Source: Acidimicrobiales bacterium (GTDB lineage Bacteria; Actinomycetota; Acidimicrobiia; Acidimicrobiales; Aldehydirespiratoraceae). From it: a stretch of 64,000 bases of DNA. The position numbers and the translations under genes were made by a program. Below the pieces are notes generated by a model, which had not been told where the DNA came from, searched no databases, and saw only the letters and a program-made list of their open reading frames with translations. Where the stretch lies: the NCBI GenBank assembly GCA_965116865.1, contig OZ220727.1, forward strand, positions 2,372,798 to 2,436,797, given 5' to 3'. The first letter of the stretch is position 1; every line of letters begins with the position of its first letter. Of the stretch, positions 1,091-60,594 are shown one piece after another.

Positions 1091-1188
1091 GTGCTCTCGC
1101 TCCGGTGTCTGGGGCGCTCAGGGTCTGAGTCGGTGCGGGCGCTGGAAGGACCAGTAGCCGGCCGACGGGGCTGGCAGCCCTGGAGTCT

Positions 1189-1232
1189 GAGTCGGTGCGG
1201 GCGCTGGAAGGACACTGCGCCCGCACCGACTC
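1189..1232. promoter_or_regulatory. Perfect 16-bp-stem hairpin in the SBP-livH intercistronic gap
   Basis: GAGTCGGTGCGGGCGC, a 12-nt loop, then GCGCCCGCACCGACTC. The left arm is also part of a 61-bp direct duplication (about 1124-1150 and 1185-1211). Confidence 0.5.
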
Positions 1233-1262
1233 TGTCAACCGGCTGGGAAGGGCCTGCTGGGG

Positions 1263-2651
1263 TCAGGCCGGGTTGCAGGTCTCGTCGGGCTCCACCGAGG
1301 GGAACGACTGCACGATCAACTGCGAGCCGTCGGCCTGGATCTCAGCCACGTAGATGGGCTGGGTCAGATGACGGCTGCCGGTGATCGCAATCTCGCCGGT
1401 CGGGGTGGTCAGCGACAGGCCCTCCATGGCGGCCGCCACCGCGGCGGTGTCTGTGGTTCCGGCCGCGTTGGCCGCGGCCGCGTACAGCAGCGCGGCGTCG
1501 TAGATGTGGGAGCTGAACGTCATGTGGGGCGGCGCATCGGCTCCGAAGCGCTCCAAGTATCGGCTGACGAACTCATTGTTGAGGGCGCTGTCCACTTCCT
1601 TGAAGTAGCCCAGCGTGACCCGCATACCTGCGGTTACCGCCGGACCCATGGCCCCCAGCACGTTCTCCTCGTAGATGTTGGCGAGACGCGGGATGGCGTC
1701 CTGGCCGATGCCGAAGTCCACCGCCTGGGTCTCGAAGGCGATGGCATCGCCGCCGACGAGCGCGGGGAAGATCAGGTCGGCGCCCGATCCCGCGATGATC
1801 TGGGCCACCGACGAGAAGTCCTGGGTGCCCAGCGGGACGTACTCCTCGCCGACCACCTCGCCGCCGGCGGCCTCGATGTACTGCCGGGCCAGCTCGAAAC
1901 TGCGGCGGGGCCACACGTAGTCGTTGCCCAGCAGGAACCAGGTCTGACCGCCCGTCTGCTCCATCATCCACGGGATCACCGGCGCCAGCTGCTGGCTGGG
2001 CACCTCGCCGGTGTTGAACATCACCGACGAGCACTCGCCGCCCTCGTACAGGGCCGTATAGATGTAGAGCACATCGGCGTCCTCCGCGAGGGGCTTGGCG
2101 GCCTGGCGTGTGGCGCTGGAATGCGTGCCGAGGACCACGTCGACGCTGTCGGAGTCGATCAGTTGCTCCATGGCCTGCCGGCCGACGGCCGGATCGGTGG
2201 CGTCGTCGGCCAGGTAGGTCTCAACAGGCCGGCCGTTGATGCCTCCAGCCGCGTTGATGTCCTCCTCGATGAACTCCGCGATGTTGGCTGTCGGGGGCCC
2301 GAACAAGCCCGCCGGTCCGCTGTTGGAGAACAGGATCCCGATGCGCACCGGCTCTCCCGAGGGCTCGGCCTGCTCCAGCGGCTCCGGCTCGGCGGGCGCC
2401 TCGGTGCTCTCAGGCTCAGGCGCCTCGGTCGTCTCCGGCTCATCGGGCGCCTCGGTGGTCTCAGGCTCGGGCATCTCCTCCGAGTCGTCCGGTTCGGCGA
2501 CGTCCGTGTCGGCCGCGGCCGGCTCAGAAGGAGTAGCCGGGGTCGCCTCGTCGTCATCCCCGCAGGCCGCGGCGATCAGAGCAAGGAGCGCGACGAACGC
2601 GGCCACAAACCACAAGCGAGACCGCGAGCGGGAGTCCGATACTGTTCTCAT
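1263..2651 (-). CDS. ABC transporter substrate-binding lipoprotein (LivJ/AmiC-type PBP1) with an acidic Pro/Glu-rich linker
   Basis: Has a signal peptide plus lipobox (LIAAACGDDDE), then a PE/TEAPE low-complexity tether and a type-1 periplasmic binding fold (IGILFSNSGPAG...LGNDYVWPRR). An AGGAGGG Shine-Dalgarno (SD) sequence precedes the ATG. Confidence 0.85.
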   Translation of the reverse strand: MRTVSDSRSRSRLWFVAAFVALLALIAAACGDDDEATPATPSEPAAADTDVAEPDDSEEMPEPETTEAPDEPETTEAPEPESTEAPAEPEPLEQAEPSGEPVRIGILFSNSGPAGLFGPPTANIAEFIEEDINAAGGINGRPVETYLADDATDPAVGRQAMEQLIDSDSVDVVLGTHSSATRQAAKPLAEDADVLYIYTALYEGGECSSVMFNTGEVPSQQLAPVIPWMMEQTGGQTWFLLGNDYVWPRRSFELARQYIEAAGGEVVGEEYVPLGTQDFSSVAQIIAGSGADLIFPALVGGDAIAFETQAVDFGIGQDAIPRLANIYEENVLGAMGPAVTAGMRVTLGYFKEVDSALNNEFVSRYLERFGADAPPHMTFSSHIYDAALLYAAAANAAGTTDTAAVAAAMEGLSLTTPTGEIAITGSRHLTQPIYVAEIQADGSQLIVQSFPSVEPDETCNPA

Positions 2652-2665
2652 GACAAAGCCCTCCT

Positions 2666-6661: not shown

Positions 6662-8389
6662 CTACTGGTAGACCGGTTCCATCGCGGCGTACCGGTCGGC
6701 AGGCTGGAAGATTCTGATGTAGTCGAGATGCATGTTGGTGACCGGGTCATCCGAGGACGGGGTACTGAAGCCCCACGCCCGAATCCTTACGTCCGCGGGC
6801 ATGTGGCTGACGCCGACTTTCTCCAGCCGCGACGACTCGTCGCCGGGGCGAAACAACTCGAAGAACCTGTCACGCCCCTCACCGGTGACGGTCCTCACGC
6901 CATCGAAACCCGTCACAACGCCGTTGGAGAGACGAGCACCAGGACTTTCCTGTATCTCTGTCTTCGCATGCGGATAGAGAGTGAAGTCGCTGTGCCAGCC
7001 GTCCACCTTCACATGGGTCTGAAAGCCTCGTGGAGTCCACTCGACACCCTTCGTCACTGTGACCTTGCCGTCTATGCCATCTTCACAGCTGGGATGAGTC
7101 CCCCCGATGCTGTAGGTGGGGAGATTCGATCTGCAATAGTAGACCTGCTTGTTGCTGCGCAGCGGAAGGCTCTCAGCGTTCTTGAAGGTAGTGAACCAGT
7201 TGAAGTACTGATGCCAAATGTCCCTGCGGGAGGATGCCACGTACTCGACGAAGTCCAGCTCGATCTCTGCGTACTTCAGGCTCTTCTCCTTACTCGTGAA
7301 GTTCAAGCCGTAGCGGTCGAACATGTATCGAGTCTCCATGGTTCCGCCCCCGTAAATCGCATAGTTCTTGTAACTGACATTGGGCGGCAGATTGACGGTG
7401 TACTTGAGTTCCAGGTACCCGTACTTGAAGGCCGTCTTGCCGAAAGTGTTTAACCCCGCTCCACAGACTGAGGTCCTAGAGATGCGATAGTGCCCGTCCT
7501 CCACGTTCTCGCAAGGCGCCTCGTACTGGCACGGATCTCCCTTGAAGCTCCAGAGGTCGACGCTCAACGTGAGGAAACCGTCCTGACACTCCTCGGAGTC
7601 GGCTGCGTTCTGGTTGCCGTTGAACTCCTCGGCGAACACCAGACTGTAGTTCTCTTTGTCCTGCACCAGCTTCGGCAGGGCGGCGCGCAGTTCCTGACTG
7701 GTCTCGGGCGCGTCGGCCGGGAGCAACTCCCCCAAGAACATGCAGACGTACCTGTCCTCGTTCATCTCGGGATAGTCGCCGCAGTCCGGCCTCCGACGAG
7801 GCGAAGCGACTCTGGACTGCTTGTAGATCTTCTGACCTGAACCGTCCTCAGCCTCCGCCGACAGTTCCGCCACCCAGGCGGGAACATCGTTGAGATAGGC
7901 AACCCAGCCGCCCCAGCCGGGGTCGTACAGATACAGCTCGCCGGTGTCCTCGACCACCCTCAACTCCACATCGAGACAATCCGACTCCGAATAGCAAGGC
8001 TCCCGAAACGGATGGCCCGCGGCATCCTCCACCGCGAACAGCACACCCGAAACCTCGTCGTTCTCGTCCATCACAACGGCCCTGTCCAAGTACAGATCGT
8101 CGCGCGCCGCGCCGTAATTCTTGTCGGCAAACTTCCCCCATACCCGGATCCTGGGCCGCATCGGGTACTCGTCCTCAACAAACCGCAAAGCCGGCAGCTG
8201 CCGGTCGACGACACCCCGCGGACCCTCGTAAGCGGACGGTCCGACGTCGGCAACCGCGGCCCCCGCCCCGTCTGGATCGAAAGCCGCGGCCGACGCACCC
8301 GAAGCCGTCAAAGCCACGACGCAGGCGAGCACCGCCCAACAGCGAAACTTGAGGCGCCTAGGCGGTGTCATTCCCGCCGAGGGGTTCAT
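6662..8389 (-). CDS. Secreted GH16/ConA-like glucanase-fold protein
   Basis: Signal peptide RRLKFRCWAVLACVVALTASGASAAA. GH16-like blocks LVFAEEFNG, FKYGYLELKYTVNLP, EIELDFVEY (ExDxxE) and MHLDYIRIFQ. The start is taken at ATG 8389 (see the uORF feature). GC is lower than in the neighbours. Confidence 0.6.
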   Translation of the reverse strand: MNPSAGMTPPRRLKFRCWAVLACVVALTASGASAAAFDPDGAGAAVADVGPSAYEGPRGVVDRQLPALRFVEDEYPMRPRIRVWGKFADKNYGAARDDLYLDRAVVMDENDEVSGVLFAVEDAAGHPFREPCYSESDCLDVELRVVEDTGELYLYDPGWGGWVAYLNDVPAWVAELSAEAEDGSGQKIYKQSRVASPRRRPDCGDYPEMNEDRYVCMFLGELLPADAPETSQELRAALPKLVQDKENYSLVFAEEFNGNQNAADSEECQDGFLTLSVDLWSFKGDPCQYEAPCENVEDGHYRISRTSVCGAGLNTFGKTAFKYGYLELKYTVNLPPNVSYKNYAIYGGGTMETRYMFDRYGLNFTSKEKSLKYAEIELDFVEYVASSRRDIWHQYFNWFTTFKNAESLPLRSNKQVYYCRSNLPTYSIGGTHPSCEDGIDGKVTVTKGVEWTPRGFQTHVKVDGWHSDFTLYPHAKTEIQESPGARLSNGVVTGFDGVRTVTGEGRDRFFELFRPGDESSRLEKVGVSHMPADVRIRAWGFSTPSSDDPVTNMHLDYIRIFQPADRYAAMEPVYQ

Positions 8390-8436
8390 CCCGATACCGC
8401 CCAGCAGCGAAACTTGAGGCGCCTGGGCGGTGTCAT
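8386..8436 (-). other. 16-codon uORF (MTPPRRLKFRCWAVSG) created by a 65-bp junction duplication
   Basis: Its ATG overlaps the pknB stop (ATGA) and its TGA overlaps ATG 8389 of the GH16-like gene (ATGA). Its first 13 residues copy the signal-peptide start at 8371. Confidence 0.3.
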
Positions 8437-10736
8437 TCCCGCCCGTGTGCACTGCGCTCACGGGCCGCTCGGGCCACGGCCTCGCCCGTATGGGCCGCGT
8501 CGCCCCCGGCGTCGTCTCCGGTCTGGTCGTCGTCTCCGGTCTGGTCGTCGTCTCCGGTCTGGTCGTCGTCTCCGGTCTCTTGGTCTTCGCCTTCCGCCGG
8601 CTCGGTCTCGATGCGGTCGCCTTCCGTCCCCAGCGACTCGCCCACCACCACGTCCACCTGCGTCTCGGACGACACTTCGAGATCGGGGGGAGGCGTCTGG
8701 GCCAGTATCCGGCCCACGTCCGACGAGCCCGGCTCGACCGGTTCGAACGTGACGATGCCGATGACGAGCCCGGCTCGCTCCACGGCCAGCTTCCCCGTGT
8801 CGAACAACAGGCCCTGCACGTCGGGGATCGCCACCAGCGGAGGACCGTCGGAGGTGATCACGAACACTTCCTGTCCGGCCGACACCGGGAAGCCGTTGGG
8901 CGGGTCGGTGCCGATGACCTGGCCCTCTTCGACCTCGGAAGAGGGCTCGCGCCTCTCGTCGACGCGGAACCCTCGCGCCGTCAAAGCCTGGAAGGCGTCG
9001 ATCAAGGACAGGCCCCGCACGTCCGGCACGAAGATCTGCCCCGGTCCGCTCGAGACGGTGATGGTAACCGCCTCGCCCGCGGCGAGCTCGGTGTTCGAGG
9101 AGGGCTCCTGCCCCACCACGATGCCTGCCTCAGCCTGGCTGGTGCCCTCGATGACGATCACCTCGTAGCCCGCGCTGCGGAGGATGCTCTCGGCGTCGAT
9201 GAGGTTGCGGCCCCGCACGGGCGGAACTCTCGGGATCTCGCTCTGGCTGACGGTGAGCGCCACCCTGGCGCCCTCCTCGATCCGTTGGCCTGCAAGCGGG
9301 CTCTGGGCGAACACCGTGTTCGCGGGCACCCCCGTGTTGACCTGGTAGCTGGGCTCCGGCTCCAGGCCGGCCGACCTCAGCAGAGCGTCCGCCTCGCCGT
9401 AGCTGATCCCAGCAACGTCGGGCACCTCGATCAGCCGGCCGATCTCGGACGCGGACGGCGGATCGGCCGGGTCGTCCTCGTCGATGACCAGCGACCGGTA
9501 GAAGGTCACGCCGAGGAAGCCGAGAGCGACCACGAGGACCACCAAGCCCAAGAACATGAGCACGGTCCGCTTCCAGCCGTCGGACCGGTGGACCTCCTCG
9601 TAGTAGTAGGCCGGCGGCATGTACTGGGGCGGAGGCGCCGGCCCCGGCACGGCGGGCGATTGAGCGCGGGTCCCGGTGGGCGGACCGCCGTCGTGCGGCG
9701 GAACGCCTGCGACCAGGCCGGTGTGCTGCCGGTCTGCCGCCGAGCCCGGCGACGCCTGCGACCCGCTCACAGGACGACGGCCCGACCCCACCACAGGCAA
9801 CTGGCCCGACCCCACCACAGGCAACTGGCCCGACCCCACCACAGGCAACTGGCCCGACCCCACCACAGGCGCCTGGCCGGTGCGGGCCGGTATTCGGTGG
9901 GCGCCGGCCAGGTAGCGCTGAAGATCGGCGCGCAGGTCCTCCGCTGCGGGATAGCGGTTGGCCGGGTTCTTGGCCAGGAGCTTGAGGATGATCGCCTCGA
10001 GGGACTCCACGATGCTCGCTCCCATCACAGAAGGCGCCAAAGGCCGCTCCTGCACATGCTTGACGGCCACCGCGGTCGAGGTGTCGGCGGTGAAGGGGGG
10101 CTTGCCTACGATCATCTCGTAGAGCACGACCCCGAGCGAGTACAGGTCGCTGCGACCGTCTAGGGCCTTGCCCTGGGCCTGCTCGGGCGAGAAGTAGGTG
10201 GCCGTGCCCATGACCGACCCGATATGGGTCAGGTTGTCGCCGGTCCTGCGGGCCAGAGCGGTGGCTATGCCGAAGTCGGCCACCTTCACTTGGCCGTCGT
10301 CGCTGACGATGATGTTGCCGAGCTTGATGTCGCGGTGCACGAGCCCGGCGTTGTGGGCGCTGCTGAGCGCTTCGGCCACGTCGGACGCGATCTCTGCCGC
10401 CCGGTCCGGGCTGAGACGCCCGGTGGAGCGCATCACGTCGGCCATGCTGCGTCCCACCACGTACTCCATGACGATGTAGTACGTGCCCTGCTCCTGGCCC
10501 CAGTCGTAGATGCCGACGATCTTGGGGTGGTTCAGATTGGCCGCGGACTTCGCCTCTCGGCGGAAGCGCTCCACGAAGCTCGGGTCGTCGGCGAACTCCG
10601 GGAACAGAACCTTCACCGCCACCTGCCGGTCGAGCGACGCGTCGTGGGCCAAGTAGACGTCGGCCATGCCGCCGCGGGCGATGCGGCGAAGCAGTTCGTA
10701 GCGACCGTTGAAGACGGTCAGCCCCTCATCTGACAC
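8433..10736 (-). CDS. pknB: Ser/Thr protein kinase with a transmembrane (TM) segment and four PASTA domains
   Basis: Kinase motifs VAVKVL, HRDIKLGNI, DFG and SPEQA. TM segment LMFLGLVVLVVALGFLGV. Repeated PASTA modules. GTG start. Contains two in-frame VNTRs. Confidence 0.9.
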   Translation of the reverse strand: MSDEGLTVFNGRYELLRRIARGGMADVYLAHDASLDRQVAVKVLFPEFADDPSFVERFRREAKSAANLNHPKIVGIYDWGQEQGTYYIVMEYVVGRSMADVMRSTGRLSPDRAAEIASDVAEALSSAHNAGLVHRDIKLGNIIVSDDGQVKVADFGIATALARRTGDNLTHIGSVMGTATYFSPEQAQGKALDGRSDLYSLGVVLYEMIVGKPPFTADTSTAVAVKHVQERPLAPSVMGASIVESLEAIILKLLAKNPANRYPAAEDLRADLQRYLAGAHRIPARTGQAPVVGSGQLPVVGSGQLPVVGSGQLPVVGSGRRPVSGSQASPGSAADRQHTGLVAGVPPHDGGPPTGTRAQSPAVPGPAPPPQYMPPAYYYEEVHRSDGWKRTVLMFLGLVVLVVALGFLGVTFYRSLVIDEDDPADPPSASEIGRLIEVPDVAGISYGEADALLRSAGLEPEPSYQVNTGVPANTVFAQSPLAGQRIEEGARVALTVSQSEIPRVPPVRGRNLIDAESILRSAGYEVIVIEGTSQAEAGIVVGQEPSSNTELAAGEAVTITVSSGPGQIFVPDVRGLSLIDAFQALTARGFRVDERREPSSEVEEGQVIGTDPPNGFPVSAGQEVFVITSDGPPLVAIPDVQGLLFDTGKLAVERAGLVIGIVTFEPVEPGSSDVGRILAQTPPPDLEVSSETQVDVVVGESLGTEGDRIETEPAEGEDQETGDDDQTGDDDQTGDDDQTGDDAGGDAAHTGEAVARAARERSAHGRE
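8511..8580. repeat. 18-bp x ~4 in-frame tandem repeat in the pknB 3' end (GDDDQT units)
   Basis: GTCGTCTCCGGTCTGGTC is repeated; the protein tail reads QTGDDDQTGDDDQTGDDDQTGDD. Confidence 0.9.
9781..9876. repeat. 24-bp x 4 in-frame tandem repeat in the pknB juxtamembrane linker
   Basis: CCCGACCCCACCACAGGCAACTGG is repeated; the protein reads VVGSGQLP x4. Confidence 0.9.
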
Positions 10737-11157
10737 TGCCGTCCATTGTAACGGGCACCCACAGGCCGAGATTCAAACCGGGAAGTCGTAACGGCATGGT
10801 TCGGGGAGGCTTGCGCGGCGGGCGAGCATCCCCGCCCCTCCCGGACGGATCGGCTGGTCGCAACGGCATGGTTCGGGGAGGCTTGCGCGGCGGGCGAGCA
10901 TCCCCGCCCCTCCCGGACGGATCGGCTGGTCGCAACGGCATGGTTCGGGGAGGCTTGCGCGGCGGGCGAGCATCCCCGCCCCTCCCGGACGGATCGGCTG
11001 GTCGCAACGGCATGGTTCGGGGAGGCTTGCGCGGCGGGCGAGCATCCCCGCCCCTCCCGGACGGATCGGCTGGTCGCAACGGCATGGTTCGGGGAGGCTT
11101 GCGCGGCGGGCGAGCATCCCCGCCCCTCCCGGACGGATCGGCTGGTCGCAACGGCAT
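10726..11157 (-). other. 143-codon ORF running in frame through the 72-bp array and ending 11 nt inside pknB
   Basis: Reads MPLRPADPSGRGGDARPPRKPPRT repeated. The stop at 10726 overlaps the pknB GTG at 10736. Confidence 0.2.
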
Positions 11158-11182
11158 GGTTCGGGGAGGCTTGCGCGGCGGG
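10786..11182. repeat. 72-bp x ~5.5 tandem array between the PP2C gene and pknB
   Basis: Unit: GGCATGGTTCGGGGAGGCTTGCGCGGCGGGCGAGCATCCCCGCCCCTCCCGGACGGATCGGCTGGTCGCAAC. Each unit has nested inverted repeats (GGGAGG/CCTCCC and GGCGGG/CCCGCC). Confidence 0.95.
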
Positions 11183-11227
11183 CCCGGCCGGCCGCGCTGC
11201 TGAGACCCCGGCCGGACGCCGCCTCTC

Positions 11228-12029: not shown

Positions 12030-12380
12030 ATGCTAACGGCCCGTCGGAGTCCCCCTCCCCTCCCACGGCATGCCTCTGCCGGGCGCGCCCGGCGACCACC
12101 AGACATGCTGACAGCCCGTCGGAGCCCCCCCGCGACCACTCCACAAACATGCAGGTGTCCAACCACCGTGACAGCTCCCGAGCCACAGCCGCGACCACTC
12201 CACAAACATGCGGACCAACCATCCAGCGGGCCACCAAACCCATGGACCCACAGCCACCCTCCTCGACATGGCCAACAGCAGCATCCAGCAGGCCACCAAA
12301 CCCATGGACCCACAGCCACCCTCCTCGACATGGCCAACAGCAGCATCCAGCAGGCCACCAAATCCATGGACCCACAGCCG
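12030..12380. repeat. Composite repeat region upstream of the PP2C gene (62-bp x ~2.5, plus 74-bp and 58-bp spaced duplications)
   Basis: CATGGACCCACAGCCACCCTCCTCGACATGGCCAACAGCAGCATCCAGCAGGCCACCAAACC recurs at 12241, 12303 and 12365. ATGCTrACrGCCCGTCGGAG occurs at 12030 and 12104. Confidence 0.85.
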
Positions 12381-12457: not shown

Positions 12458-12541
<84 letters not shown>

Positions 12542-13208: not shown

Positions 13209-15548
13209 TTAAGGCGGCGGCAAGTTGGATGAGTACGGGCGAGACTTAATGTACTCTTCCATGAACGCCAGGTCGAGTTCGTTGCCATCAGTGAGAGGCA
13301 GTCGAATACTCGATCGCCGCATGCGTGTTTGGCTGCATTTCCTGCCGTAGTTGTATCGGTACTGTTCTAGGTTGATTATCGTTACAAGAAACATAGCAAC
13401 ATAGGAGTTCATTGAGAACTTCGGAATCAGCTTCTCAACGTGATCGGATGCGGTAAACGGCTGCGCTTGGTAGCTACAATACCCTGCAACCGCACTGTCA
13501 ACCACAAGGACACCACCCCGTTCCGTGTATGTGCCGAAGAAGTGCCTTACTCCGTTATTCGTCGCCTGAGTCGTTACGAATGGGAATCTCAACTGAGTGC
13601 CATAGTCTCCTGCGTGTAGCTCTCTCAGTGGTGTCGTCTGACTGCCAGTTATCTTAAAGATATCGGCAATCTTAACTTCTTTCCACGTTGATACGTCAAG
13701 AGCGAGTGTGGCTTCACAGCTGGACGCATCGGAAACGTTTGGAACAATTCTGTTCGCAAACAAGTACGCCGAGTATTCGTGTAGCGTATTGTCAAACGGA
13801 TTATCAGTAAGCAGGCCGTAATCTGTCTCCATGTATGCCTCAGCGGCCCATTCATCTGCGCTAGTGAGTACCCGATTGACGCTCAACCCTGGAACAGTCC
13901 GTCGATTGAAGTAGAGGTCAAGCCACTGGCACCTGATTTCGTCCCACTTGCCGAAGGCATCGAAGCGTCCACCAACCTTACGTTTGACGAATCCATCGTC
14001 CTTGTAGTAGCCCAAAAAAACTTCTTGGGTCATTGGATGTTCGCGCCATGCTTCGAACACCATGATGCATGAAACAACGCCGACATCTGAGTTGAAGAAG
14101 AGTTCGTCAGGCATGGACAGAACTGCCCTAAGTGTATGCTTCTCCATCAATTGACGCTTCAGGTCACCAATTGTGCCCTTGACGGCAAGAGCGCATTGCA
14201 TTGGCACGATGGCCACACAGATAGAACCTTGAGTTAGGCATTCCAAGTTGTTGAGCACGAACTGGAGCTCTTCGATGTCCTCCTTCTTGTCAGACTTGTA
14301 AGGAGGGTTCAACATGCCGACCGTGGGTCTGTGTTCCTTCATGCTGTTCATTACGTTAGAATCAAAGCAACTGCCTAGTTCAATATTGGACTTACCATCC
14401 TGATGAATGAGCATGTTTGATACCGCCAGTGGGTATATGTCTGATTGAATCTCAACACCGTACAGATGGTCACTCTTTATTGAGTTCTCTGTTGAGGTGG
14501 AGCCCTTAGCATCATCAATCATCCTCTTCATTGCACTGATCAAAAAGCCGCCAGTCCCGGCACAGCTATCGTAGACCACGGATTCGGATCTGACCTGAGC
14601 AAGTTCGGCAAACAGCTCAGTAATGTGAGGAGGTGTCAAGACGATCCCTAGGCCCTTGTCGCTGTTTGCATGTCGTAGGAACTCGACATATATAGTACCG
14701 AGCACGTCTCGATACTGGTGTGTCTTAACGAAAGAGTTCACTTCACGATCAATCTCAGATACGATGCGTCGCAACTCATGCTGTGATCTGATTAGTTCAG
14801 TTTCAAGAGGCAAGAAACCGAACTTCTGTTCGAGCACGTTCAGACGCTTGCTGCCAATGTTTGCTGACTTGAGTTCAGTGATAACTGAATCCACGATGGA
14901 CTTAGCCAGCTGCGTTGAGTCTGTCTCGGACTGGTATGACTTTCGGAAGGCTCTTCGCTCTAGTGCAATCATCACAGCGCTTATCAATAGAGAGCGATTC
15001 TTCTCGGAGACCTTGTTCTTGTGTAGATCGATGTTCAATTGTCGAATGAACTTTTGAAGAGAGTGAAAGTCCTGTCTATACTTGATGGGGTCGTTACGGT
15101 ATCCTTGCAAGTAGTCGTCAACGGGTAGCAGAGCGTGCCCGAAGGCGTCCCTTGGTTCACGCTCTGACCTGAACTTGAAGAAATGAGATATTCTAGCTGA
15201 CTTGGCATCAGTTCCGCTCACCGCTAGGGCCAAGACATCGTAGTTCTCGGAGAGGTAGGACGCATAGTGTAGCGTGCCATCGACGGCATAGTCTCTCGGT
15301 CTAGCGCGAGTGGGACTCTCGTGTTTAGTGATGTCCTCCTTGCATTCGATGACAATCAACAGTTCGGCTTCCTCATTGAAGCGAACGATGAATTCAGGTT
15401 GACCATGTCCTAGACCTGATTTGGAAGCTTGACTTAGCAGTTTTCGAATTCTGGGTTCTGCAGACTGCTGCTCTTCGAGCACTATCTCATCGCGGAACTG
15501 TTTGAAGTGCTCTCGAACGATGTCTTCAGTGGTTCTTTCATTTGCCAT
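13209..15548 (-). CDS. Single-chain restriction-modification protein: PD-(D/E)xK-like N-domain, gamma-class N6-adenine DNA methyltransferase and one HsdS-type target-recognition domain (Type IIG/IIB-like)
   Basis: N-terminal domain GQPEFIVRF...LLIVIECKED. Methyltransferase motif I is VYDSCAGTGGFLISA and motif IV is MLNPPYKSD. C-terminal TRD: WKEVKIADIFKITGSQTTP...RSSIRLPL. The gene is visibly AT-rich (about mid-40s % GC by eye). Confidence 0.8.
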   Translation of the reverse strand: MANERTTEDIVREHFKQFRDEIVLEEQQSAEPRIRKLLSQASKSGLGHGQPEFIVRFNEEAELLIVIECKEDITKHESPTRARPRDYAVDGTLHYASYLSENYDVLALAVSGTDAKSARISHFFKFRSEREPRDAFGHALLPVDDYLQGYRNDPIKYRQDFHSLQKFIRQLNIDLHKNKVSEKNRSLLISAVMIALERRAFRKSYQSETDSTQLAKSIVDSVITELKSANIGSKRLNVLEQKFGFLPLETELIRSQHELRRIVSEIDREVNSFVKTHQYRDVLGTIYVEFLRHANSDKGLGIVLTPPHITELFAELAQVRSESVVYDSCAGTGGFLISAMKRMIDDAKGSTSTENSIKSDHLYGVEIQSDIYPLAVSNMLIHQDGKSNIELGSCFDSNVMNSMKEHRPTVGMLNPPYKSDKKEDIEELQFVLNNLECLTQGSICVAIVPMQCALAVKGTIGDLKRQLMEKHTLRAVLSMPDELFFNSDVGVVSCIMVFEAWREHPMTQEVFLGYYKDDGFVKRKVGGRFDAFGKWDEIRCQWLDLYFNRRTVPGLSVNRVLTSADEWAAEAYMETDYGLLTDNPFDNTLHEYSAYLFANRIVPNVSDASSCEATLALDVSTWKEVKIADIFKITGSQTTPLRELHAGDYGTQLRFPFVTTQATNNGVRHFFGTYTERGGVLVVDSAVAGYCSYQAQPFTASDHVEKLIPKFSMNSYVAMFLVTIINLEQYRYNYGRKCSQTRMRRSSIRLPLTDGNELDLAFMEEYIKSRPYSSNLPPP

Positions 15549-15952: not shown

Positions 15953-16171
15953 CGACGCACAAACTCTAAGTCCCGACACGCAAACCGAAAGCCGCGACGC
16001 TGACCGAGCGCGCCAGCCGCCACACCGACGCACAAACTCTAAGTCCCGACACGCAAACCGAAAGCCGCGACGCTGACCGAGCGCGCCGGCCGCCACACCG
16101 ACGCACAAACTCTAAGTCCCGACACGCAAACCGAAAGCCGCGACGCTGACCGAGCGCGCCAGCCGCCACAC
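15953..16171. repeat. 73-bp x 3 tandem repeat
   Basis: CGACGCACAAACTCTAAGTCCCGACACGCAAACCGAAAGCCGCGACGCTGACCGAGCGCGCCAGCCGCCACAC is repeated with a 73-bp period. Confidence 0.95.
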
Positions 16172-16289
16172 CCTTGCCGTCGCGCTGCCCGACGGCTACG
16201 ACGCCGCCAGCACCGCGGCCGCGGCCATCGCCGCTCCCGCCCGCCAACCGGCGCACCCGGCCAAGACCCCGACCCGGGACCAGGACCGC

Positions 16290-18668: not shown

Positions 18669-18712
18669 CGAACACCCCGCCCAAGACCCAGCGGCGCAAC
18701 GACCGCGCGCGA
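18256..18712. repeat. 72-bp x ~6.3 tandem array between iclR and hutH (two alternating unit variants)
   Basis: Unit: CACCAGCGCAACAACCGCGCGCGACACAACCACCACAGAACCGAGCTGCCACCGAACACCCCGCCCAAAGCC. Variants carry AAAGCCCACCAGCGC or AAGACCCAGCGGCGC. Confidence 0.95.
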
Positions 18713-26934: not shown

Positions 26935-26940
26935 AGCCCA

Positions 26941-45055: not shown

Positions 45056-45118
45056 TCACCGCCCGCATCCACACCAACCATACCACAACCAACCCCAATA
45101 ACTAAAGACTCAGGACAC
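43958..45118 (-). mobile_element. IS630-family element, type B, copy 1
   Basis: IRs are GTGTCCCGAGTC and GACTCAGGACAC. It shares single TA dinucleotides with both flanking type-A copies. Confidence 0.8.
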
Positions 45119-46092
45119 TAGTGCATGCTCGCGGTAGTCATATGGCTGTGTTAGGGTCGGGTTATGACTGTTCCTAGGACTTTGAAGGTGTGCGAGGCTG
45201 ATCGGGCGGTGCTGGAGGCGCGGGTGGCTGCGTCGACGACGCCGCGGCGGGATTGGCAGCGTGCCAAGGTGGTGCTGATGGCCGCTGAGGGGCTGTCGTC
45301 TCCGGTGATCGGCAAGGCGGTGGGCCTGAACCGCAACCAGGTGGACGTGTGGCGGCGCCGCTACGGCGAGGCGGGCCTGGGCGGGCTCGCGGACCGGCCG
45401 CGCTCGGGCCGGCCGCGTGTGTATGGGCCCGCGGAGAGGCTGGCTTTGGTCAAGACGATCACGACGCGGCCCCCCGAGGCGGGCCAGCTCGGCGGGCGGC
45501 GGCTCAAGGCCCGCATGTCGATGCCCGAGGTCGGCCGGATCATGCGCGAGGACCTCGCCATCGCGATCTCGGACTCGCAGGTGTGGCGGATCTGCACCTC
45601 GATGGGCCTCAAGCCGCAGCAGGCGCGCTCGTGGACGGCCTCCCATGACGCAGACTTCGACGCCGAGGCCGCCGACGTCTGCGGGCTGTGCCTCGACCCG
45701 CGGGACAACTGGGCGGTGTTCAGCGTCGACGAGAAGACCGCCATACAGGCCAAGAGCCGCGTCGGCGCGACCCGCCCGGCGCGGCCCGCCGACGGCGCCG
45801 CCGCCGGGCGGGTCGCCCGACAGGAGTTCGAGTACCGCCGCCACGGCACCAAGGCACTGTTCGCCGCGTTCGAGTGCGCCACCGGCGAAGTCGTCGCCGC
45901 GCCCACAGACTCGGTCCGCTCGGACAACTTCGTGGCGTTCCTCGCCGAGCTGGACTCCATGGTGCCCGCCCACCTCGAGCTGCGCTGCATCGTCGACAAC
46001 CTCGCCACCCACTGCACCGCCGCCGTCGAGGAGTTCCTCGACGGCCACCACCGCGTGTTCCTGCACCGCACCCCCACCCACGCATCCTGGCT

Positions 46093-47485
46093 GGCAGCGT
46101 CCCACCGGGTGGTGGAAATTGAGGTAGCTGGGAGGGTCCACCTGTAGGGGGGCCATCGGCGTGATCCTCGGTGAGAAGACATCACCGACTCATCGAGGAG
46201 GACACACCGATGACCCTGTCTGATACTGCCACAGCGCAGCTGTTGGAGACCTTCCGCGCCTCAGGTGGCGCGGAGCTGATCCGTGAGGCGGTGGAGCTGG
46301 TGCTCCAGGAGCTGATCGAGGCCGAGGCGACCGCGGCGATCGGAGCGGGCCGCTATGAGCGCAGCGAGACCCGCACGACGGCGCGCAACGGGCACCGCGG
46401 CCGCCTGTTGGCCACCCAGGCGGGGGATCTGGAGCTGAAGATCCCCAAGCTGCGCAAGGGCAGCTTCATGCCGTCGGTGCTCGAGCCGCGCCGGCGCATC
46501 GACCGGGCGCTGTATGCGGTGATCATGGAGGCCTACGTCGCTGGGGTGTCCACCCGCTCGGTGGACGACCTGGTGGCCGCGCTGGGAGCGGAGTCGGGCA
46601 TCTCCAAGTCGGAGGTGTCGCGGATCTGTGCGGGCCTCGACGAGGGCGTGGAGGCCTTCCGCAGCCGGCGCCTGGACCACATCGAGTTCCCCTACGTCTA
46701 CTTGGACGCCACCTACCTCAATGTGCGCAACAGCGTCGCCCAGCCAGCGTCAATGGCGACGGTGGTGGCCACCGGGATCACCTCAGACGGCAATCGTGAG
46801 GTCCTGGGCTGTGACGTCGGCGACAGCGAGAGCGAAGCCTTCTGGCAGCAGTTCATGGGGTCTTTGCGCGACCGGGGCCTCACCGGGGTGCGCCTGGTGA
46901 TCTCCGACGCTCACCGCGGGCTCGCCGCAGCCGCCGACCGCTGGTTCCAGGGCGCCGCCAGACAGCGTTGCCGGGTGCATTTCATCCGGAACCTGCTGGC
47001 GGTGGTGCCCCGCAGCCACCAGCACATGGCCGCCGCCTTGTTCCGCACGATCTTCGCTCAACCCGACACCGACGCCGTCACCGCCGCCTGGGACCAAGTC
47101 ACCACCCAACTCGCCGCCAGCTTCCCCAAAGCGGGCCCGCTGATGGACACAGCCAGAGCCGAGGTGCTGGCCTTCGCCGCGTTCCCCAAGGCCCACCGGC
47201 AAAAGATCCGGTCCACCAACCCCCTCGAACGCATCAACAAGGAGATCAAGAGACGATCACGCGTCGTGGGGATCTTCCCCAACGAGGCCTCCGCCATCCG
47301 ATTGGTCGGAGCCATCCTCGCCGACCTCCACGACGAGTGGCAGGCCAGCGACCGGCGCTACCTCTCAGAGGACTCCATGAGCCTGCTCTACCCCGAGCGC
47401 GATAGTCTCGCCACAGCCGAACTCACAGCCGGCAACTAACCACCGAGGCTCAACCCCAAAGTCCACCACGCCACGGGACGCCCCC
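46093..47485 (+). mobile_element. IS256-family insertion sequence
   Basis: IRs are GGCAGCGTCCCACCGGGTGGTGGAAATTGAGG and the reverse complement of GGGGGCGTCCCGTGGCGTGGTGGACTTTGGGG. The flanking duplication is TCCTGGCT / TCCTGGGCT. Confidence 0.8.
46171..47439 (+). CDS. IS256-family (mutator-type) transposase
   Basis: RNGHRGRLLATQAGDLELKIPKLRKGSFMPSVLE, YLDATYLNVR, and ISDAHRGL. The likely start is MTLSD at 46210. Confidence 0.9.
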   Translation: MRRHHRLIEEDTPMTLSDTATAQLLETFRASGGAELIREAVELVLQELIEAEATAAIGAGRYERSETRTTARNGHRGRLLATQAGDLELKIPKLRKGSFMPSVLEPRRRIDRALYAVIMEAYVAGVSTRSVDDLVAALGAESGISKSEVSRICAGLDEGVEAFRSRRLDHIEFPYVYLDATYLNVRNSVAQPASMATVVATGITSDGNREVLGCDVGDSESEAFWQQFMGSLRDRGLTGVRLVISDAHRGLAAAADRWFQGAARQRCRVHFIRNLLAVVPRSHQHMAAALFRTIFAQPDTDAVTAAWDQVTTQLAASFPKAGPLMDTARAEVLAFAAFPKAHRQKIRSTNPLERINKEIKRRSRVVGIFPNEASAIRLVGAILADLHDEWQASDRRYLSEDSMSLLYPERDSLATAELTAGN

Positions 47486-47681
47486 TCCTGGGCTCAACCA
47501 GATCGAGATGTGGTTCTCCATCCTCACCCGACAACTCCTCGACACAGCCGAGTTCGCCCACACCAGCGACCTCGCCGGAGCCATCCTCGACTACATCGAC
47601 GACTACAACAACCGGGCCACACCCTTCAAATGGACCTACCACCCAAACCAACAGCCACAGAACTCACGCGCGTGACCACTA

Positions 47682-48851
47682 GTGTCCTGAGTCTTTAGTT
47701 ATTGGGGTTGGTTGTGGTATGGTTGGTGTGGATGCAGGCGGTGATTGGAGGCAGTCGTGGCTAGGGGCCGTCGTGGGGTGGAGGTGGTGCTCGCCGATGA
47801 GCAGCGCGAGACGCTGGAGCGGTGGGCGCGGCGCCAGAAGTCGTCGCAGGCTCTGGCGCTGCGGTGCCGGATAGTGCTGGGCGCGGCCGCGGGGGAGACG
47901 AACAAGTCGATCGCGGCGTCGCTGGGGTGCAGCGAGGCGACGGTGTCGAAGTGGCGGCGCCGGTTCGCGGGGCGCGGGTTGGACGGGCTCTGCGACGAGC
48001 CGCGTCCGGGCGCGCCGCGCACGGTGAGCGACGACAAGGCGCAGGAGGTGATCGTCAAGACGCTGGAGTCGGCTCCTGAGGGCGCGACGCACTGGTCGAC
48101 GCGCTCGATGGCCGCGCAGGTGGGGCTGTCGCAGTCGACGATCTCGAGGATGTGGCGGGCCTTCGGGCTCAGGCCCCATGGCGTGGAGGAGTTCAAGGTG
48201 TCGCCGGACCCCCAGTTCATCGACAAGGCGCGCGACGTCGCCGGGCTGTACTTGAACCCGCCGGAGGCAGCGGTGGTGCTCTGCGCGGACGACAAGACCC
48301 GGATCCAGGCTCTCGACCGCACCGCGCCGGTGCTTGCCTTGATGCCGGGTGTGCCCCAGCGCCGAACCCACGACTACCGCCGCTTCGGCACCACCAACCT
48401 CCACGCGGCGCTCGACGCCGCCTCGGGCAAAGCCATCTCCTCGATGACCGCGCGCCACCGCGCCATCGAGTCCCGCAAGTTCCTGGACCTCATCGACAGC
48501 GAAGCCCCCGAGGGCCCCAAGGCGCACGTCGTGCTGGACAACTCCTCCACCCACAAGACCCCCGCCATACAGCGCCGGCTGCTGCGCCACCCCCGCTTCA
48601 GCTTCCACCTCACCCCCACCCACAGCTCGTGGACGAACCTCGTCGAGCGCTGGTTCGCCGAGCCCACCACCAAACGGATCCGCCGCGGCACCCACACCAG
48701 CACCAAAGAGCCCACCGGCTCCATCCAGCACCGGATCGACCACCGGAACCACAACCCCCGCCCGTTCACATGGCACAAGAGCGCCGACGAGATACTCCAC
48801 AACCCGGCAACATATCTCCAACGAATTCCTGACTCAGAACACTAGACATCG
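47682..48851 (+). mobile_element. IS630-family element, type B, copy 2 (inverted relative to copy 1)
   Basis: It has the same IRs as copy 1. TA dinucleotides lie at 47680-47681 and 48852-48853. Confidence 0.8.
47745..48845 (+). CDS. IS630-family DDE transposase (type B, copy 2)
   Basis: 366 aa; differs from the copy at 43955-45055 at a handful of residues. Confidence 0.85.
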   Translation: MEAVVARGRRGVEVVLADEQRETLERWARRQKSSQALALRCRIVLGAAAGETNKSIAASLGCSEATVSKWRRRFAGRGLDGLCDEPRPGAPRTVSDDKAQEVIVKTLESAPEGATHWSTRSMAAQVGLSQSTISRMWRAFGLRPHGVEEFKVSPDPQFIDKARDVAGLYLNPPEAAVVLCADDKTRIQALDRTAPVLALMPGVPQRRTHDYRRFGTTNLHAALDAASGKAISSMTARHRAIESRKFLDLIDSEAPEGPKAHVVLDNSSTHKTPAIQRRLLRHPRFSFHLTPTHSSWTNLVERWFAEPTTKRIRRGTHTSTKEPTGSIQHRIDHRNHNPRPFTWHKSADEILHNPATYLQRIPDSEH

Positions 48852-49878: not shown

Positions 49879-49880
49879 CG

Positions 49881-52201: not shown

Positions 52202-53416
52202 GTGGGCATGATCGAGAGGGAGATCACGCCGCATCTGCTCCGTCTGATCGACCAGTACCCGGTCCTGACGATCACCGGCCCGCGCCAGTCCGGCAAGACG
52301 ACCCTGTGTCGCAGGGCCTTTGGGAATCTGCCTTACGCCAACCTGGAGGACCCCGACGTGCGCGAGTTCGCGACGTCGGACTCGCGGGCGTTTCTGGCGC
52401 AGTTCCCCGATGGGGCTGTGCTCGATGAGATCCAGCGCGCCCCGGATCTGCCGTCGTACCTCCAAGGCCTCGTCGACGAGGACCCCCAGCGGTTCCGGTT
52501 CGTCCTCACCGGCAGCGAGCAGTTCGGCTGGACCGACTCGATCAGCCAGTCGCTCGCGGGCCGCACCGCGGTGTTGCGCCTGTTGCCGTTCACGCTGGCG
52601 GAGTGTGCGCTTGCCGGCGCGTCCGGCGATCTCAACGAGGTCCTGTTCGCCGGCGGCTACCCCAGCATCCACGCCCAGGGCCGCTCCCCCGCCGAGGCGC
52701 TCGGCGACTACGTCACGACCTACGTAGAGCGCGACGTGCGCCGGATCGGCGCAATCCAGGACCTCGCCGTATTCGCTCGCTTCATGCGCCTCGCAGCTGG
52801 CCGCGTCGGCCAACTGCTGAACGTGACCAACCTCGCCAACGACACCGGCGTGGCTCCCGGCACCGCCCGGTCATGGCTGTCGGTCCTGCAAGCGAGCAAC
52901 ATCGTGTTCCTCCTGGAGCCCCACCTGCCGAACATCCGCAAGCGCCTCACCAAAGCGCCGAAGCTCTACTTCGTCGACGTCGGCCTCGCCGGCTACCTCA
53001 TCGGGATCCGCACCGCCGAGCAGGTCGCCACTCACCCTCTGCGGGGAAACCTGTTCGAGAACGCCGCAGTCGGCGAGGCCCTCAAGCATGCCTACAACAA
53101 CGCTGTCCGGCACCCGAGACTGTCCTTCTACCGGACCTCGGCGGGCCTCGAATGCGGCCTGCTGCACCCGACCGCCTCGGGCCTGGCCGCAGTAGAGATC
53201 AAGTCCGGCCAGACACTCCACACATCCTGGTTCTCGCGCCTGGCGCGCCTCAAGACAGACCTCCCCGACATCTCGGCGGCCGCCGTCGTCTACGGCGGCT
53301 CGCAGCGCCAACACCGCACCGCCGGCGAGGCCGTGCCACTCACACACTTCGCCGAGTACCTGACCACCCTCGACACCCCGCCACCGGCCCTCAGACCAGG
53401 CGGCCTCGACACCTAA
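52202..53416 (+). CDS. AAA+ ATPase, DUF4143 family
   Basis: Walker A ITGPRQSGKTTL, AVLDEIQRAPDL, and the DUF4143-like YRTSAGLECGLL...EIKSGQT. Confidence 0.8.
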   Translation: MGMIEREITPHLLRLIDQYPVLTITGPRQSGKTTLCRRAFGNLPYANLEDPDVREFATSDSRAFLAQFPDGAVLDEIQRAPDLPSYLQGLVDEDPQRFRFVLTGSEQFGWTDSISQSLAGRTAVLRLLPFTLAECALAGASGDLNEVLFAGGYPSIHAQGRSPAEALGDYVTTYVERDVRRIGAIQDLAVFARFMRLAAGRVGQLLNVTNLANDTGVAPGTARSWLSVLQASNIVFLLEPHLPNIRKRLTKAPKLYFVDVGLAGYLIGIRTAEQVATHPLRGNLFENAAVGEALKHAYNNAVRHPRLSFYRTSAGLECGLLHPTASGLAAVEIKSGQTLHTSWFSRLARLKTDLPDISAAAVVYGGSQRQHRTAGEAVPLTHFAEYLTTLDTPPPALRPGGLDT

Positions 53417-53590
53417 ACGGCCCGACACCCCGCCACCGGCCCTCAGACCAAGCGGCCTCGACACCTAAACGGCCCGACACCCCGCCACCGGCCCTCAGAC
53501 CAGACGGCCTCGACACCTAAACGGCCCGACACCCCGCCACCGGCCCTCAGACCAAGCGGCCTCGACACCTAAACGGCCCGACACCCCGCC
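53371..53590. repeat. 52-bp x ~4.2 tandem array that copies the last codons and stop of the ATPase gene
   Basis: The unit CGACACCCCGCCACCGGCCCTCAGACCAGGCGGCCTCGACACCTAAACGGCC occurs at 53371, 53423, 53475, 53527 and 53579. Confidence 0.95.
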
Positions 53591-58729: not shown

Positions 58730-58850
58730 GCTGACTATCCCTCCCGTTCGTAGGCCTGCACACGCACAGCGACGCCGACACTAACCGGGTCCGCCGCCAA
58801 CGGCTAGCGGGGTCGCGGGTTGCGATGCGCCGACCCCGCCGACGCGCAGA

Positions 58851-60401
58851 TTACGGCAGGCGGATGGGGAAAGCAGCCCGGATGCGGGCGTCGACGTCGG
58901 CGCTGATGTGGGACGGGCGGTGCTCGGCCAAAACCCGCTGCACGTACTCGTGGGCACGCGTCCGCGAGTCCTTGCCTCCGGCGTCGAGCCAGTTGTCGGG
59001 AGTGTCGCGGTCGCCGATCTCGGGGTAGACGTAATCCCGCTGCATCAGGTCCAGGGTCTGGGGCGCACCCAGGAAGTGGCCCGGCCCCGACACCACATCG
59101 GCGATCAGCTGGGCCGAAAGGGTCTCCTCGTTGACCTCGATGCCCCTGACGGTGCGGTTGATCGAGCCGAGCATGTCGTTGTCGATCACCAGCGCCTCCA
59201 GCGAGCAGCTCAGGATGCTGGCCAGCATGCCGGCTGACTCGTACACCAGGTTGGCGCCGGCCTGGCCGGCCAGCGTGATGTTCATGCCCTTCTCGTAGCC
59301 GGCCTGGTTGTCGGGGACCTTCGAATCGGCCATGCCCGCGGCCACCCCCGACGGCAGGCCCATCCAGTTGACCAGCTGGGCCGCGGCCGCGTTCAAAACG
59401 CCCTCCTCGCCGGAGCCGCCGCTCATCGCTCCTGTGCGCAGATCCGACACGAAAGGCCACATGCCCATCACGCACGGATGGCCCGGGCTCAGCAGGTTCA
59501 CCCCGGTGAGCGCGGCCAGGCACTCGGCCAAGGCCTGGGCCAGCGACCCGGCCAGAGCCGCCGGCGAGGTCGCCCCGGCCTGCCCGGCCGACAGCAGGTT
59601 TATCGGCATACCGGTGGACACCTGAGCCACCAGAGCCTTGGCCGACTCCTCCGCGAAGCGCAGCGGCGGCACCACGAACGTGTTGTTGGCCGCCACGAAC
59701 GGGCGCTTGCGGAACTCGCCGGGCCCGCCGAGAGCCATGTCGAACATGTCCACCGTCTCGTAAACGTGCTCGCGCTCGAACCATGACGTGCCGATCGGCT
59801 TGGCGGTGCCGACCATGGCCGCGTAGGCGGTATTGAGGTCGAGCAGCCGGGCGTCCTCCAAGTCGCGTGCCACCACCGTGCGCACGAAGAAGTGGATGTT
59901 GTCGAGGACGTCCACCAGCCGGGCGCAGTCGTAGACGTCCACCGCGGTGGACGGCCGGAACACGCCGGTCGCATGGTCGTGCATCAGCACGGCGGCGCCG
60001 GCGGTGCCGAAATGGACCCGGTCGGCGCCCACGATGATCGACTGGTCGTCGTCGAAACCGTGCCACACCCACTCCTTCGCCGCGGCGGCGATCGCGCCCT
60101 CCACCACACTCTTCGGGTAGCGCAGCCGGCCGGCGTCGTCGACACGGCCGCCCGCGGCGGTCACCACATCGACGAACTCCTCGATGGGCGAGCCCATCCC
60201 GACGTCTTCGAGCAACGCCAGCGCAGTGTCGTACACCTGCTGCATGTCGGTCTCGCTCAAGGGAGCGAGCTTTCCGCCGGGCATCCCAGGGCGCACCGGC
60301 CGCACATCGGCCTCCAGCGGCGCCTGGCGAGCCGCTATGCGCCCGGCCCGACCGCCGCCACGGCGCCGGCCTCCTCCTCGGCCTCGGTCGCGATCAGTCA
60401 T
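58851..60401 (-). CDS. MttB-superfamily (trimethylamine methyltransferase-like, non-pyrrolysine) methyltransferase
   Basis: Arg/Gly-rich N-terminus, then LSETDMQQVYDTALALLEDVGM and a TIM-barrel length of 516 aa. The frame is continuous with no amber codon. Confidence 0.75.
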   Translation of the reverse strand: MTDRDRGRGGGRRRGGGRAGRIAARQAPLEADVRPVRPGMPGGKLAPLSETDMQQVYDTALALLEDVGMGSPIEEFVDVVTAAGGRVDDAGRLRYPKSVVEGAIAAAAKEWVWHGFDDDQSIIVGADRVHFGTAGAAVLMHDHATGVFRPSTAVDVYDCARLVDVLDNIHFFVRTVVARDLEDARLLDLNTAYAAMVGTAKPIGTSWFEREHVYETVDMFDMALGGPGEFRKRPFVAANNTFVVPPLRFAEESAKALVAQVSTGMPINLLSAGQAGATSPAALAGSLAQALAECLAALTGVNLLSPGHPCVMGMWPFVSDLRTGAMSGGSGEEGVLNAAAAQLVNWMGLPSGVAAGMADSKVPDNQAGYEKGMNITLAGQAGANLVYESAGMLASILSCSLEALVIDNDMLGSINRTVRGIEVNEETLSAQLIADVVSGPGHFLGAPQTLDLMQRDYVYPEIGDRDTPDNWLDAGGKDSRTRAHEYVQRVLAEHRPSHISADVDARIRAAFPIRLP

Positions 60402-60594
60402 CGGCGTCTCCCTCGGCCTCGGTCGCGATCAGTCATCGGCGTCTCCTCCTTCCTGCGAACTGGCTGCATTCGTCCACCGCTGCAGTGGGCAACCGGCAGA
60501 AGTTCGGGAGGCGGCGCCGTCGGTCATGCACGGGGGCCAGATTGGCCGCGCAAGGCGCCTCGTGCTTGCAGCCCCTGGCGGCGCCGTCGGTCAT
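60398..60594 (-). other. Two chained mini-ORFs (53 and 12 codons) linking the DMGDH-like gene to the mttB-like gene through ATGA overlaps
   Basis: The ATG at 60594 overlaps the upstream TGA. The 53-codon ORF ends in an ATGA at 60436-60433. The 12-codon ORF MTDRDRGRGRRR ends in the ATGA at the mttB-like start, 60401. These arise from 67-bp and 35-bp junction duplications. Confidence 0.3.

Follow-up and report, generated by a model that had tools for sequence, protein, structure and literature searches.

The overlapping NTGA junction is the commonest spacing between prokaryotic genes, and the dependence of cells on the coupling of translation across it is debated. In Mycobacterium tuberculosis, variable-number tandem repeats (VNTRs) consist of private, near-identical units of about 50-80 bp in intergenic DNA, expanded by slippage or recombination; the locus-specific minisatellites of the ETR and QUB type are said to have been described by Frothingham and Meeker-O'Connell in 1998, and we know of no rule that ties the period of a VNTR to the preservation of a start/stop overlap. 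Mycobacterial interspersed repetitive units (MIRUs; Supply et al. 1997, 2000) are direct tandem repeats of 40-100 bp that lie between the genes of operons and contain no palindromes. Their small open frames overlap the flanking stop and start codons by 4 nt (a -4 overlap), which is thought to minimise the effect on downstream expression, and they form a single dispersed family of related sequences at 41 loci that is regarded as mobile (PMC5056196; PMC12548453). NTGA overlaps at -4 also feature in termination-reinitiation coupling, as do short 'delivery' open reading frames (PMC12548453, citing Huber et al. 2019, 2023). Here, we describe a 64,000-nt stretch (the window) of a 3.32-Mb genome of Acidimicrobiia in which gene junctions, among them those of a histidine utilization (hut) operon, are expanded by tandem arrays and yet keep an unbroken succession of overlapping open frames from one gene to the next. 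In the literature that we searched, no such arrays are reported in Acidimicrobiia, and junction expansions that preserve coupling are described only for MIRUs.

Tandem Repeats Finder (TRF), run over the window (about 67% G+C), returned nine near-perfect arrays, A1 to A9, with periods of 35-73 bp, plus many shorter repeats. Matches within the arrays are 96-100%, and the periods fall between 52 and 73 bp with a single 35-bp case. A first-pass annotation, made from the letters alone, had placed tandem arrays at named junctions, and TRF bears this out; the two-copy repeats of 65, 67 and 75 bp that it listed are likewise real. Most of its gene labels also stand, since Pfam searches matched pknB, PP2C, IclR, HutH, HutU, Def and the DMGDH-like and MttB-like genes and found an amidohydrolase at each of the hutF and hutI positions; the gene after pknB, labelled 'GH16-like', had no Pfam match. 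We then asked of each expanded junction, written upstream>downstream, whether a relay of frames spans it, requiring that every frame open on an NTG that overlaps the preceding stop by 4 nt (or 1 nt). The downstream starts were fixed independently, by alignment to residue 1 of relatives. The features on which the argument rests are as follows.

18262-18713, minus strand: array A4 (TRF), 72 bp in 6.3 copies, holding the iclR stop (GTGA, 18668-18665).
18174-18668, minus strand: iclR>hutH bridge frame (relay test), 164 aa, from the GTG overlapping the iclR stop to the TGA overlapping the hutH ATG at 18177.
21211-21384, plus strand: hutU>def bridge frame (relay test), 57 aa, from the hutU stop (ATGA) to the def ATG at 21381 (ATGA).
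21947-22450, plus strand: def>hutF bridge frame (relay test), 167 aa, from the def stop (ATGA) to the hutF ATG at 22447 (ATGA).
22028-22423, plus strand: array A5 (TRF), 72 bp in 5.5 copies, within the def>hutF bridge frame.
23814-24287, plus strand: array A6 (TRF), 61 bp in 7.8 copies, at hutF>hutI.
24271-24534, plus strand: bridge frame of 87 aa (relay test), from the last ATGA of A6 to the hutI GTG at 24531 (GTGA).
60376-60446, junction on the minus strand: array A9 (TRF), 35 bp in 2 copies, at DMGDH>mttB.
60367-60603, minus strand: DMGDH>mttB junction as a whole, with a 53-aa frame (60594-60433) and a 12-aa frame (60436-60398) leading onto the mttB ATG at 60401, the two-copy 35-bp unit, and repeats spaced 67 bp apart (60510/60577).
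8331-8443, minus strand: 65-bp two-copy duplication (8331/8396) that includes the pknB stop (ATGA, 8436-8433).
10785-11183, minus strand: array A1 (TRF), 72 bp in 5.5 copies with 99% matches, in the PP2C>pknB spacer, without a relay.

The relay reaches the homology-defined start at five junctions, iclR>hutH, hutU>def, def>hutF, hutF>hutI and DMGDH>mttB, and every step in these five relays is a 4-nt NTGA overlap. The most elaborate is that of hutF>hutI. Each A6 unit carries two ATGA motifs, giving 15 mini-frames that are alternately 17 aa and 4 aa long; the 87-aa frame then runs onto the GTG at 24531, which aligns with residue 1 of HutI in relatives. Two of the bridges hold repeats outside the nine arrays: an in-frame 75-bp two-copy repeat (21201-21228 and 21276-21303) in the hutU>def bridge and a decayed two-copy repeat with a 72-bp spacing (24334-24374 and 24406-24446) in the 87-aa frame. 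The bridge frames lack the pattern of G+C content at the three codon positions that real genes display, and they are not genes, even though the 57-aa hutU>def bridge is annotated as one in an independent contig (L001 of the loci fetched for comparison). The earlier claim that six of seven arrayed junctions are spanned in this manner thus holds strictly for five. After pknB, a 16-aa mini-frame (8436-8386) ends by an ATGA on the ATG at 8389, which is in frame with the next gene, so that this sixth relay is conditional on ATG 8389 being the start; the gene call of another assembly is GTG 8461. At PP2C>pknB the relay fails despite array A1. In relatives this junction is a spacer of 73-180 nt, likewise without overlap, and since it is ancestrally non-overlapping and is the sole arrayed junction that lacks a relay, it serves as an internal control.

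Comparison with relatives establishes the ancestral state of the relayed junctions. The gene order iclR<hutH< >hutU>def>hutF>hutI is conserved, and among some 80 relatives scored, def/hutF, hutF/hutI and iclR/hutH are -4 overlaps in most, with hutU/def either a -4 overlap or a gap of 2-4 nt. The suggestion that junctions with 4-nt overlaps have been expanded is supported. All five of the window's junctions with an ancestral overlap or 2-4 nt gap keep the relay. Two null models were used to judge how often this would occur by chance. The first kept the end tetranucleotides, shuffled the interior with matched composition and drew the length class at random; per-junction chances were 0.18, 0.02, 0.03, 0.17, 0.14 and 0.27. 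The second, more conservative, shuffled one unit and rebuilt the array from it, and gave 0.15, 0.10 and 0.35 for the three large arrays. The joint chance for the five firm junctions is about 1e-4. The same excess is found outside the window: 19 of 38 hut-operon junction expansions of 5-300 nt in relatives reach the downstream start by a strict relay where 6.2 were expected, and none of 200,000 simulations attained 19. Of the 22 expansions in relatives that have an NTGA at both ends, 17 keep the relay, where the expected chance of doing so was about 28% for each. Examples of such bridges are those of 25 aa and 31 aa in locus L113 and of 12 aa in L114. Both data sets thus uphold the proposal that the overlap is kept beyond chance.

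The periods of the repeats obey a corresponding rule. Where a repeat inside a bridge frame has no NTGA, its period is a multiple of 3 (72, 72, 75 and 72 bp); where the unit does carry an NTGA, successive ATG codons are 11+50, 35 and 65 nt apart, and each of these steps is 2 mod 3. When units were added or removed in silico, the relay was never broken at A4, A5, A6 or the 35-bp repeat. Arrays outside the coupled junctions, with periods of 72, 62, 73, 62, 52 and 62 bp, follow no frame rule. High-scoring arrays inside genes have periods of 18, 24, 27 and 36 bp, again divisible by 3.

Several of the units can be traced to the ends of the flanking genes. That of A6 joins 27 nt to the final 34 nt of hutF, in which the ATGA of that gene lies. 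At DMGDH>mttB, the start of mttB and its Shine-Dalgarno-like motif are part of the 35-bp unit and the DMGDH stop is part of the repeats spaced 67 bp apart; the pknB stop falls within the 65-bp repeat. The unit of A8, an array in a convergent spacer, includes the TAA stop of the adjacent DUF4143 ATPase gene. Of the A4 copies, only the one nearest iclR contains the iclR stop, with TCA in place of the CCA of the others. At def>hutF, the spacer resembles its 136-nt counterpart in L003, itself a bridge of 45 aa: the two align over the 77 nt that follow the def stop and over the final part of the spacer. A5, at least, is an amplification inside an older bridge spacer common to L003 and not a new junction event. 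Within these spacers a 20-nt block, TCTGTCAAGAAACCACCGCA, is identical between the window (21986-22005) and L003 (12467-12486), in surroundings about 75% identical, and may be a regulatory site.

Unit privacy and the distribution of arrays were judged on the window, 64 kb of the 3.32-Mb genome, and on 114 fetched loci. No second copy of any unit was found elsewhere in the window. Against the 114 loci, the units gave a single weak, short match, that of A6 to the homologous hutF end in L003 (35 nt, 83%, E 4e-4). The longest words common to different units are of 11 nt or less, in agreement with the statement that unit sequences are unrelated between loci. The accompanying statement that every array is private to its locus holds across the window and the 114 loci, apart from the weak A6 match. 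A search of the protein database with a chimeric peptide, made by joining stop-free translations of A1, A2, A4 and A7, gave no match; as it missed even an A1 open reading frame that is called in another assembly, it says nothing on dispersal of the units. A3 has no stop-free frame.

The closest relatives found, L113 and L114 (84% HutF identity, on 3.9-Mb contigs), have compact junctions and carry 0-1 arrays per 21 kb, against 12 arrays with a period of at least 30 bp per 64 kb in the window. In L006 and L007 there are three per 21 kb in either locus, and the majority of the other loci have no array. As relatives at this distance are without them, the large arrays are recent and specific to this species.

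Arrays of equal quality lie away from coupled boundaries. Coupled same-strand boundaries host four arrays and three two-copy repeats; A1 (in an uncoupled same-strand spacer), A2, A3, A7 (in a 5' region), A8 (in a convergent spacer) and a direct repeat at 1123-1213 are not at such boundaries. Those not yet listed are the following.

1123-1213, minus strand: two-copy direct repeat read from the sequence, about 29 nt each, 62 nt apart, in the spacer between a binding-protein gene and livH.
12220-12379, no strand assigned: array A2 (TRF), 62 bp in 2.6 copies, between a tRNA gene (12458-12541) and the PP2C start.
15953-16172, no strand assigned: array A3 (TRF), 73 bp in 3.0 copies, between a restriction-modification methylase gene and the 3' end of hutH.
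33631-33778, plus strand: array A7 (TRF), 62 bp in 2.4 copies, in the 5' region of a PAE-like gene.
53371-53590, plus strand: array A8 (TRF), 52 bp in 4.2 copies, in the convergent spacer where the DUF4143 ATPase gene faces an IclR-family gene.

The repeat at 1123-1213 lies in an ordinary spacer without a relay, and the upstream stop reads CTGA. By our reading of its translation, the DNA that adjoins A3 is a remnant of an IS30-like transposase; Pfam gave no match. A7 is flanked by an imperfect 37-nt direct repeat, and the PAE-like gene downstream of it has, by reading of the sequence, a lipoprotein signal. Downstream of the pknB stop, in a convergent spacer, L006 and L007 likewise contain duplications (38 and 66 bp).

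Two regularities run through the arrays as a set. On the plus strand, six of the nine (those at 12220, 15953, 18262, 23814, 33631 and 53371) are rich in A+C and poor in T whatever the strand of the flanking genes, and the whole window has more C than G on this strand; the polarity may be a replication-strand effect. As a result of this composition, the units are nearly free of stop codons on both strands. The array periods of the window also fall into groups, at 52 bp, at 61-62 bp with four cases and at 72-73 bp with five; the spacing of roughly 10 bp between groups could be chance or a helical-phase constraint.

We consider it probable that tandem duplication occurs locally at a high rate in this lineage and that its products have been filtered by selection for intact proteins and continuous translation. 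Local duplications of about 35-75 bp would arise frequently and then be amplified, presumably by slipped-strand mispairing or unequal recombination, and selection would purge most of the products. A short duplication would spare the proteins of both neighbours only in a spacer or where it straddles a gene boundary, and one that straddles an NTGA overlap would copy the NTGA. The survivors would mostly be those whose small frames each open on the previous stop. In such an arrangement ribosomes could pass from gene to gene by termination-reinitiation, leaving no stretch of mRNA untranslated. The bridge would tolerate further amplification only of units that are free of stops and a multiple of 3 in length, or that bring NTGA reset points of their own, after which copy number could drift with the relay unbroken. 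To judge from the sequences, the selected trait is most likely either termination-reinitiation coupling itself (reviewed in PMC12548453) or the avoidance of untranslated mRNA and the polarity that would ensue. Untargeted duplication followed by selection would leave the pattern seen, in which equally good arrays occupy uncoupled same-strand, convergent, divergent and 5' spacers.

Several points weigh against this interpretation. No source was found for units A1, A2, A3, A4 and A7. A pure selection filter would not predict that six of nine arrays share the A+C polarity, nor does the interpretation account for the contrast between this species and its array-poor relatives. The relatives' expansions are not all independent, as L008, L011 and L012 share one and L009 and L010 share another. 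Coupling across the bridges is something that we infer, with the sequence as its basis, and protection from Rho-dependent polarity is an alternative selected trait. Furthermore, Shine-Dalgarno-like motifs lie upstream of the hutF, hutI and mttB starts (none is found at def); because of these motifs the three genes may not need reinitiation, and if reinitiation is dispensable there, the nature of the selected trait is uncertain.

The explanation that survives best after this one, although we regard it as unlikely, is a dispersed, mobile family resembling MIRUs, whose members would bring a coupled frame with them when inserting at start codons and whose other copies would lie beyond the 64-kb window. 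MIRUs have been described as inserting at start codons with -4 coupling (PMC12548453), the five untraced units would fit such an origin, and the clade does contain a dispersed element of about 55 nt. This element has the core GGCCCGAGCGGCCCGTGAGCGCAG, often followed by CGAACAAGAGCGGGAG, and is common to several species of the clade. Both orientations are seen, two copies may stand in tandem, and the element frequently lies within a coupled bridge frame, as at iclR>hutH in L005, L015 and L113 and at hutU>def in L003. The copies are as follows.

8432-8486, minus strand: copy within the 3' end of the pknB frame.
26151-26206, plus strand: copy between hutI and a lactamase_B-family gene.
L003 11707-11805; L005 9099-9194; L015 9090-9142; L113 6832-6884: copies in relatives.
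L007 4046-4168, 7516-7569 and 16290-16343: copies in a further relative.

The dispersed element is a closer MIRU analogue than are the private arrays. The units of the arrays are unlike one another and unlike the element; for A4, compared by eye only with the copies of the element at iclR>hutH in L005, L015 and L113, no similarity was seen. The lack of second copies in the window and the lone weak match in the 114 loci, at a homologous position, also argue against a dispersed family. In addition, A6, A8 and the 35-, 65- and 67-bp repeats are built of flanking gene ends, A5 arose from a spacer already present in L003, and the closest relatives have none of the arrays.

The arrays might instead be adaptive tuners of expression, in which a loss of ribosomes at each reinitiation would let copy number set the output of the downstream gene, much as at a contingency locus. 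The relay of 15 mini-frames that precedes hutI invites this idea, as does the finding in silico that copy number can change without loss of the relay. Of the 26 differences between the window and a strain 99.3% identical to it, 13 fall within 242 nt of A4 (window 18472-18713 against L001 1-242), which speaks for rapid change there; the cluster reflects either fast turnover of repeat variants or the collapse of repeats in a short-read assembly. However, the copy numbers of A1-A4 are identical in a second assembly, A8 in its convergent spacer and A3 beside an apparent insertion sequence (IS) remnant have no downstream gene to tune, and there is no sign of a design conserved between loci; neutral drift under a frame filter fits the same facts. 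We therefore think adaptive tuning quite improbable. The broader proposal that the arrays are a lineage-specific, heritable setting of protein ratios within operons, with frame-neutral copy changes acting as a fast, reversible dial for genes such as hutI and hutF, seems to us just as doubtful. A related possibility is a dedicated process that duplicates preferentially at coupled boundaries, for example a strand-biased defect in replication or repair, as hinted by the common A+C-rich polarity and the clustering of periods near 52, 62 and 72 bp. The first-pass annotation had favoured a recurrent process acting on junctions. We saw no evidence of junction targeting, and the claim is not supported, in view of the equally good arrays in uncoupled spacers, of the in-gene arrays, whose periods are multiples of 3, and of the duplications in a convergent spacer of related species.

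The bridge frames are very unlikely to be real repeat proteins or N-terminal extensions, and the units very unlikely to be structured RNAs of the repetitive extragenic palindromic (REP) type. The frames are long and open (57-167 aa), one is called as a gene in another assembly, and the hutF frame is open through A5 as well. Real proteins are ruled out by a codon-position composition unlike that of genes and by the absence of the units from close relatives; the database copy of HutF, moreover, starts at ATG 22447, outside the array. A structured RNA is ruled out by unit folding, for which z-scores against shuffles were -2.1 to +1.5 with no consistent structure, and by Rfam, in which no family matches the arrays. 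That the arrays are assembly artefacts is scarcely credible, even though metagenome assembly, from which the window derives, is prone to errors in the copy number of long arrays, and is ruled out by two other contigs: one, of another ENA assembly, matches the window at 100% identity across 15.3 kb and has A1-A4 in the same copy numbers, and one, from the Joint Genome Institute (JGI), comes from another sample, is 99.3% identical and enters both A4 and A5. The JGI contig carries at least 3.4 A4 units and ends inside A4 and A5, as short-read assemblies do at true repeats. Exact-protein look-ups for HutU, HutF (P0001) and the PDT-family protein gave no match, so that the comparison with the second assembly covers A1-A4, and a metagenome scan with Def found no strain above 81% identity.

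The host is a member of the sponge-associated Acidimicrobiia, near Ca. Aldehydirespirator and Ca. Poriferisodalis. Judged by HutU, the nearest genomes are metagenome-assembled genomes of Acidimicrobiia at 92-93% identity that include these two taxa, several of them derived from sponge metagenome projects, and the clade belongs among the sponge-associated Actinomycetota (PMC11706023; a taxonomy look-up agrees). Insertions are abundant at 13209-15548, 29245-31005 and 42803-48845 of the window. They include an N6_Mtase/Methylase_S gene of low G+C content (about 48-54%), IS630-like transposases (two matched by Pfam, at 42803-43951 and 43955-45055, and probably two more, at 45164-46147 and 47745-48845), and transposases of the IS256 family and of IS4/IS5-like type. 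The window also lacks the DAO gene found after hutI in L113 and L114; together with the many insertions, its absence is consistent with a genome in flux. Between the lactamase_B-family and PDT-family genes, the divergent spacer (26936-27187) is packed with repeats of 13-14 nt resembling CCCCGTTGCCCATT, and measures 351 nt in the window versus 66 nt in L113. A frame of 1820 aa (38465-43927, minus strand) without a Pfam match lies in a region of lower G+C content, about 60-66%. Rfam reports a PYLIS_3 match, the pyrrolysine insertion sequence of mttB, with 47.9 bits at 59234-59333 on the minus strand, inside the MttB-like gene; as this gene is an uninterrupted frame of 516 aa, the match is probably mere homology of coding sequence.

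The expansions in this window and in related genomes, which number in the dozens, keep the frame relay about three times more often than chance, which provides comparative evidence for selection on continuous translation across operon boundaries in Actinomycetota. They amount to a natural experiment on translational coupling, in that the duplicates surviving at junctions almost always keep an unbroken relay, and the rule that units be stop-free multiples of 3 or carry their own NTGA predicts which minisatellites can grow inside operons. In practical terms, gene callers will yield spurious repeat 'proteins' and wrong starts at loci of this kind.

Among the systems described to date, MIRUs offer an apt comparison, as the first-pass annotation had proposed: both are direct repeats of similar size in an actinobacterial host, with small frames that overlap the flanking stop and start at -4. 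The present arrays differ in that each has its own unit, several of these units derive from flanking gene ends, and none recurs in the window or the 114 loci; their host, moreover, belongs to the Acidimicrobiia and not to the mycobacteria. REP elements and miniature inverted-repeat transposable elements are more distant: such elements are palindromic or have terminal inverted repeats and are present in many copies, whereas the units here show no consistent structure, match no Rfam family and occur nowhere else in the window. With the VNTRs of M. tuberculosis the arrays share private, near-identical units in actinobacterial intergenic DNA; the copy-number polymorphism that defines a VNTR was compared here for A1-A4, which are identical between two assemblies. 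With the known coupling systems they share NTGA overlaps at -4 between co-oriented genes and short frames that, we infer, hand the ribosome onward, but here the hand-over would be stretched by duplication into as many as 16 consecutive frames. Taken together, the arrays are more akin to private minisatellites with a frame rule like that of MIRUs.

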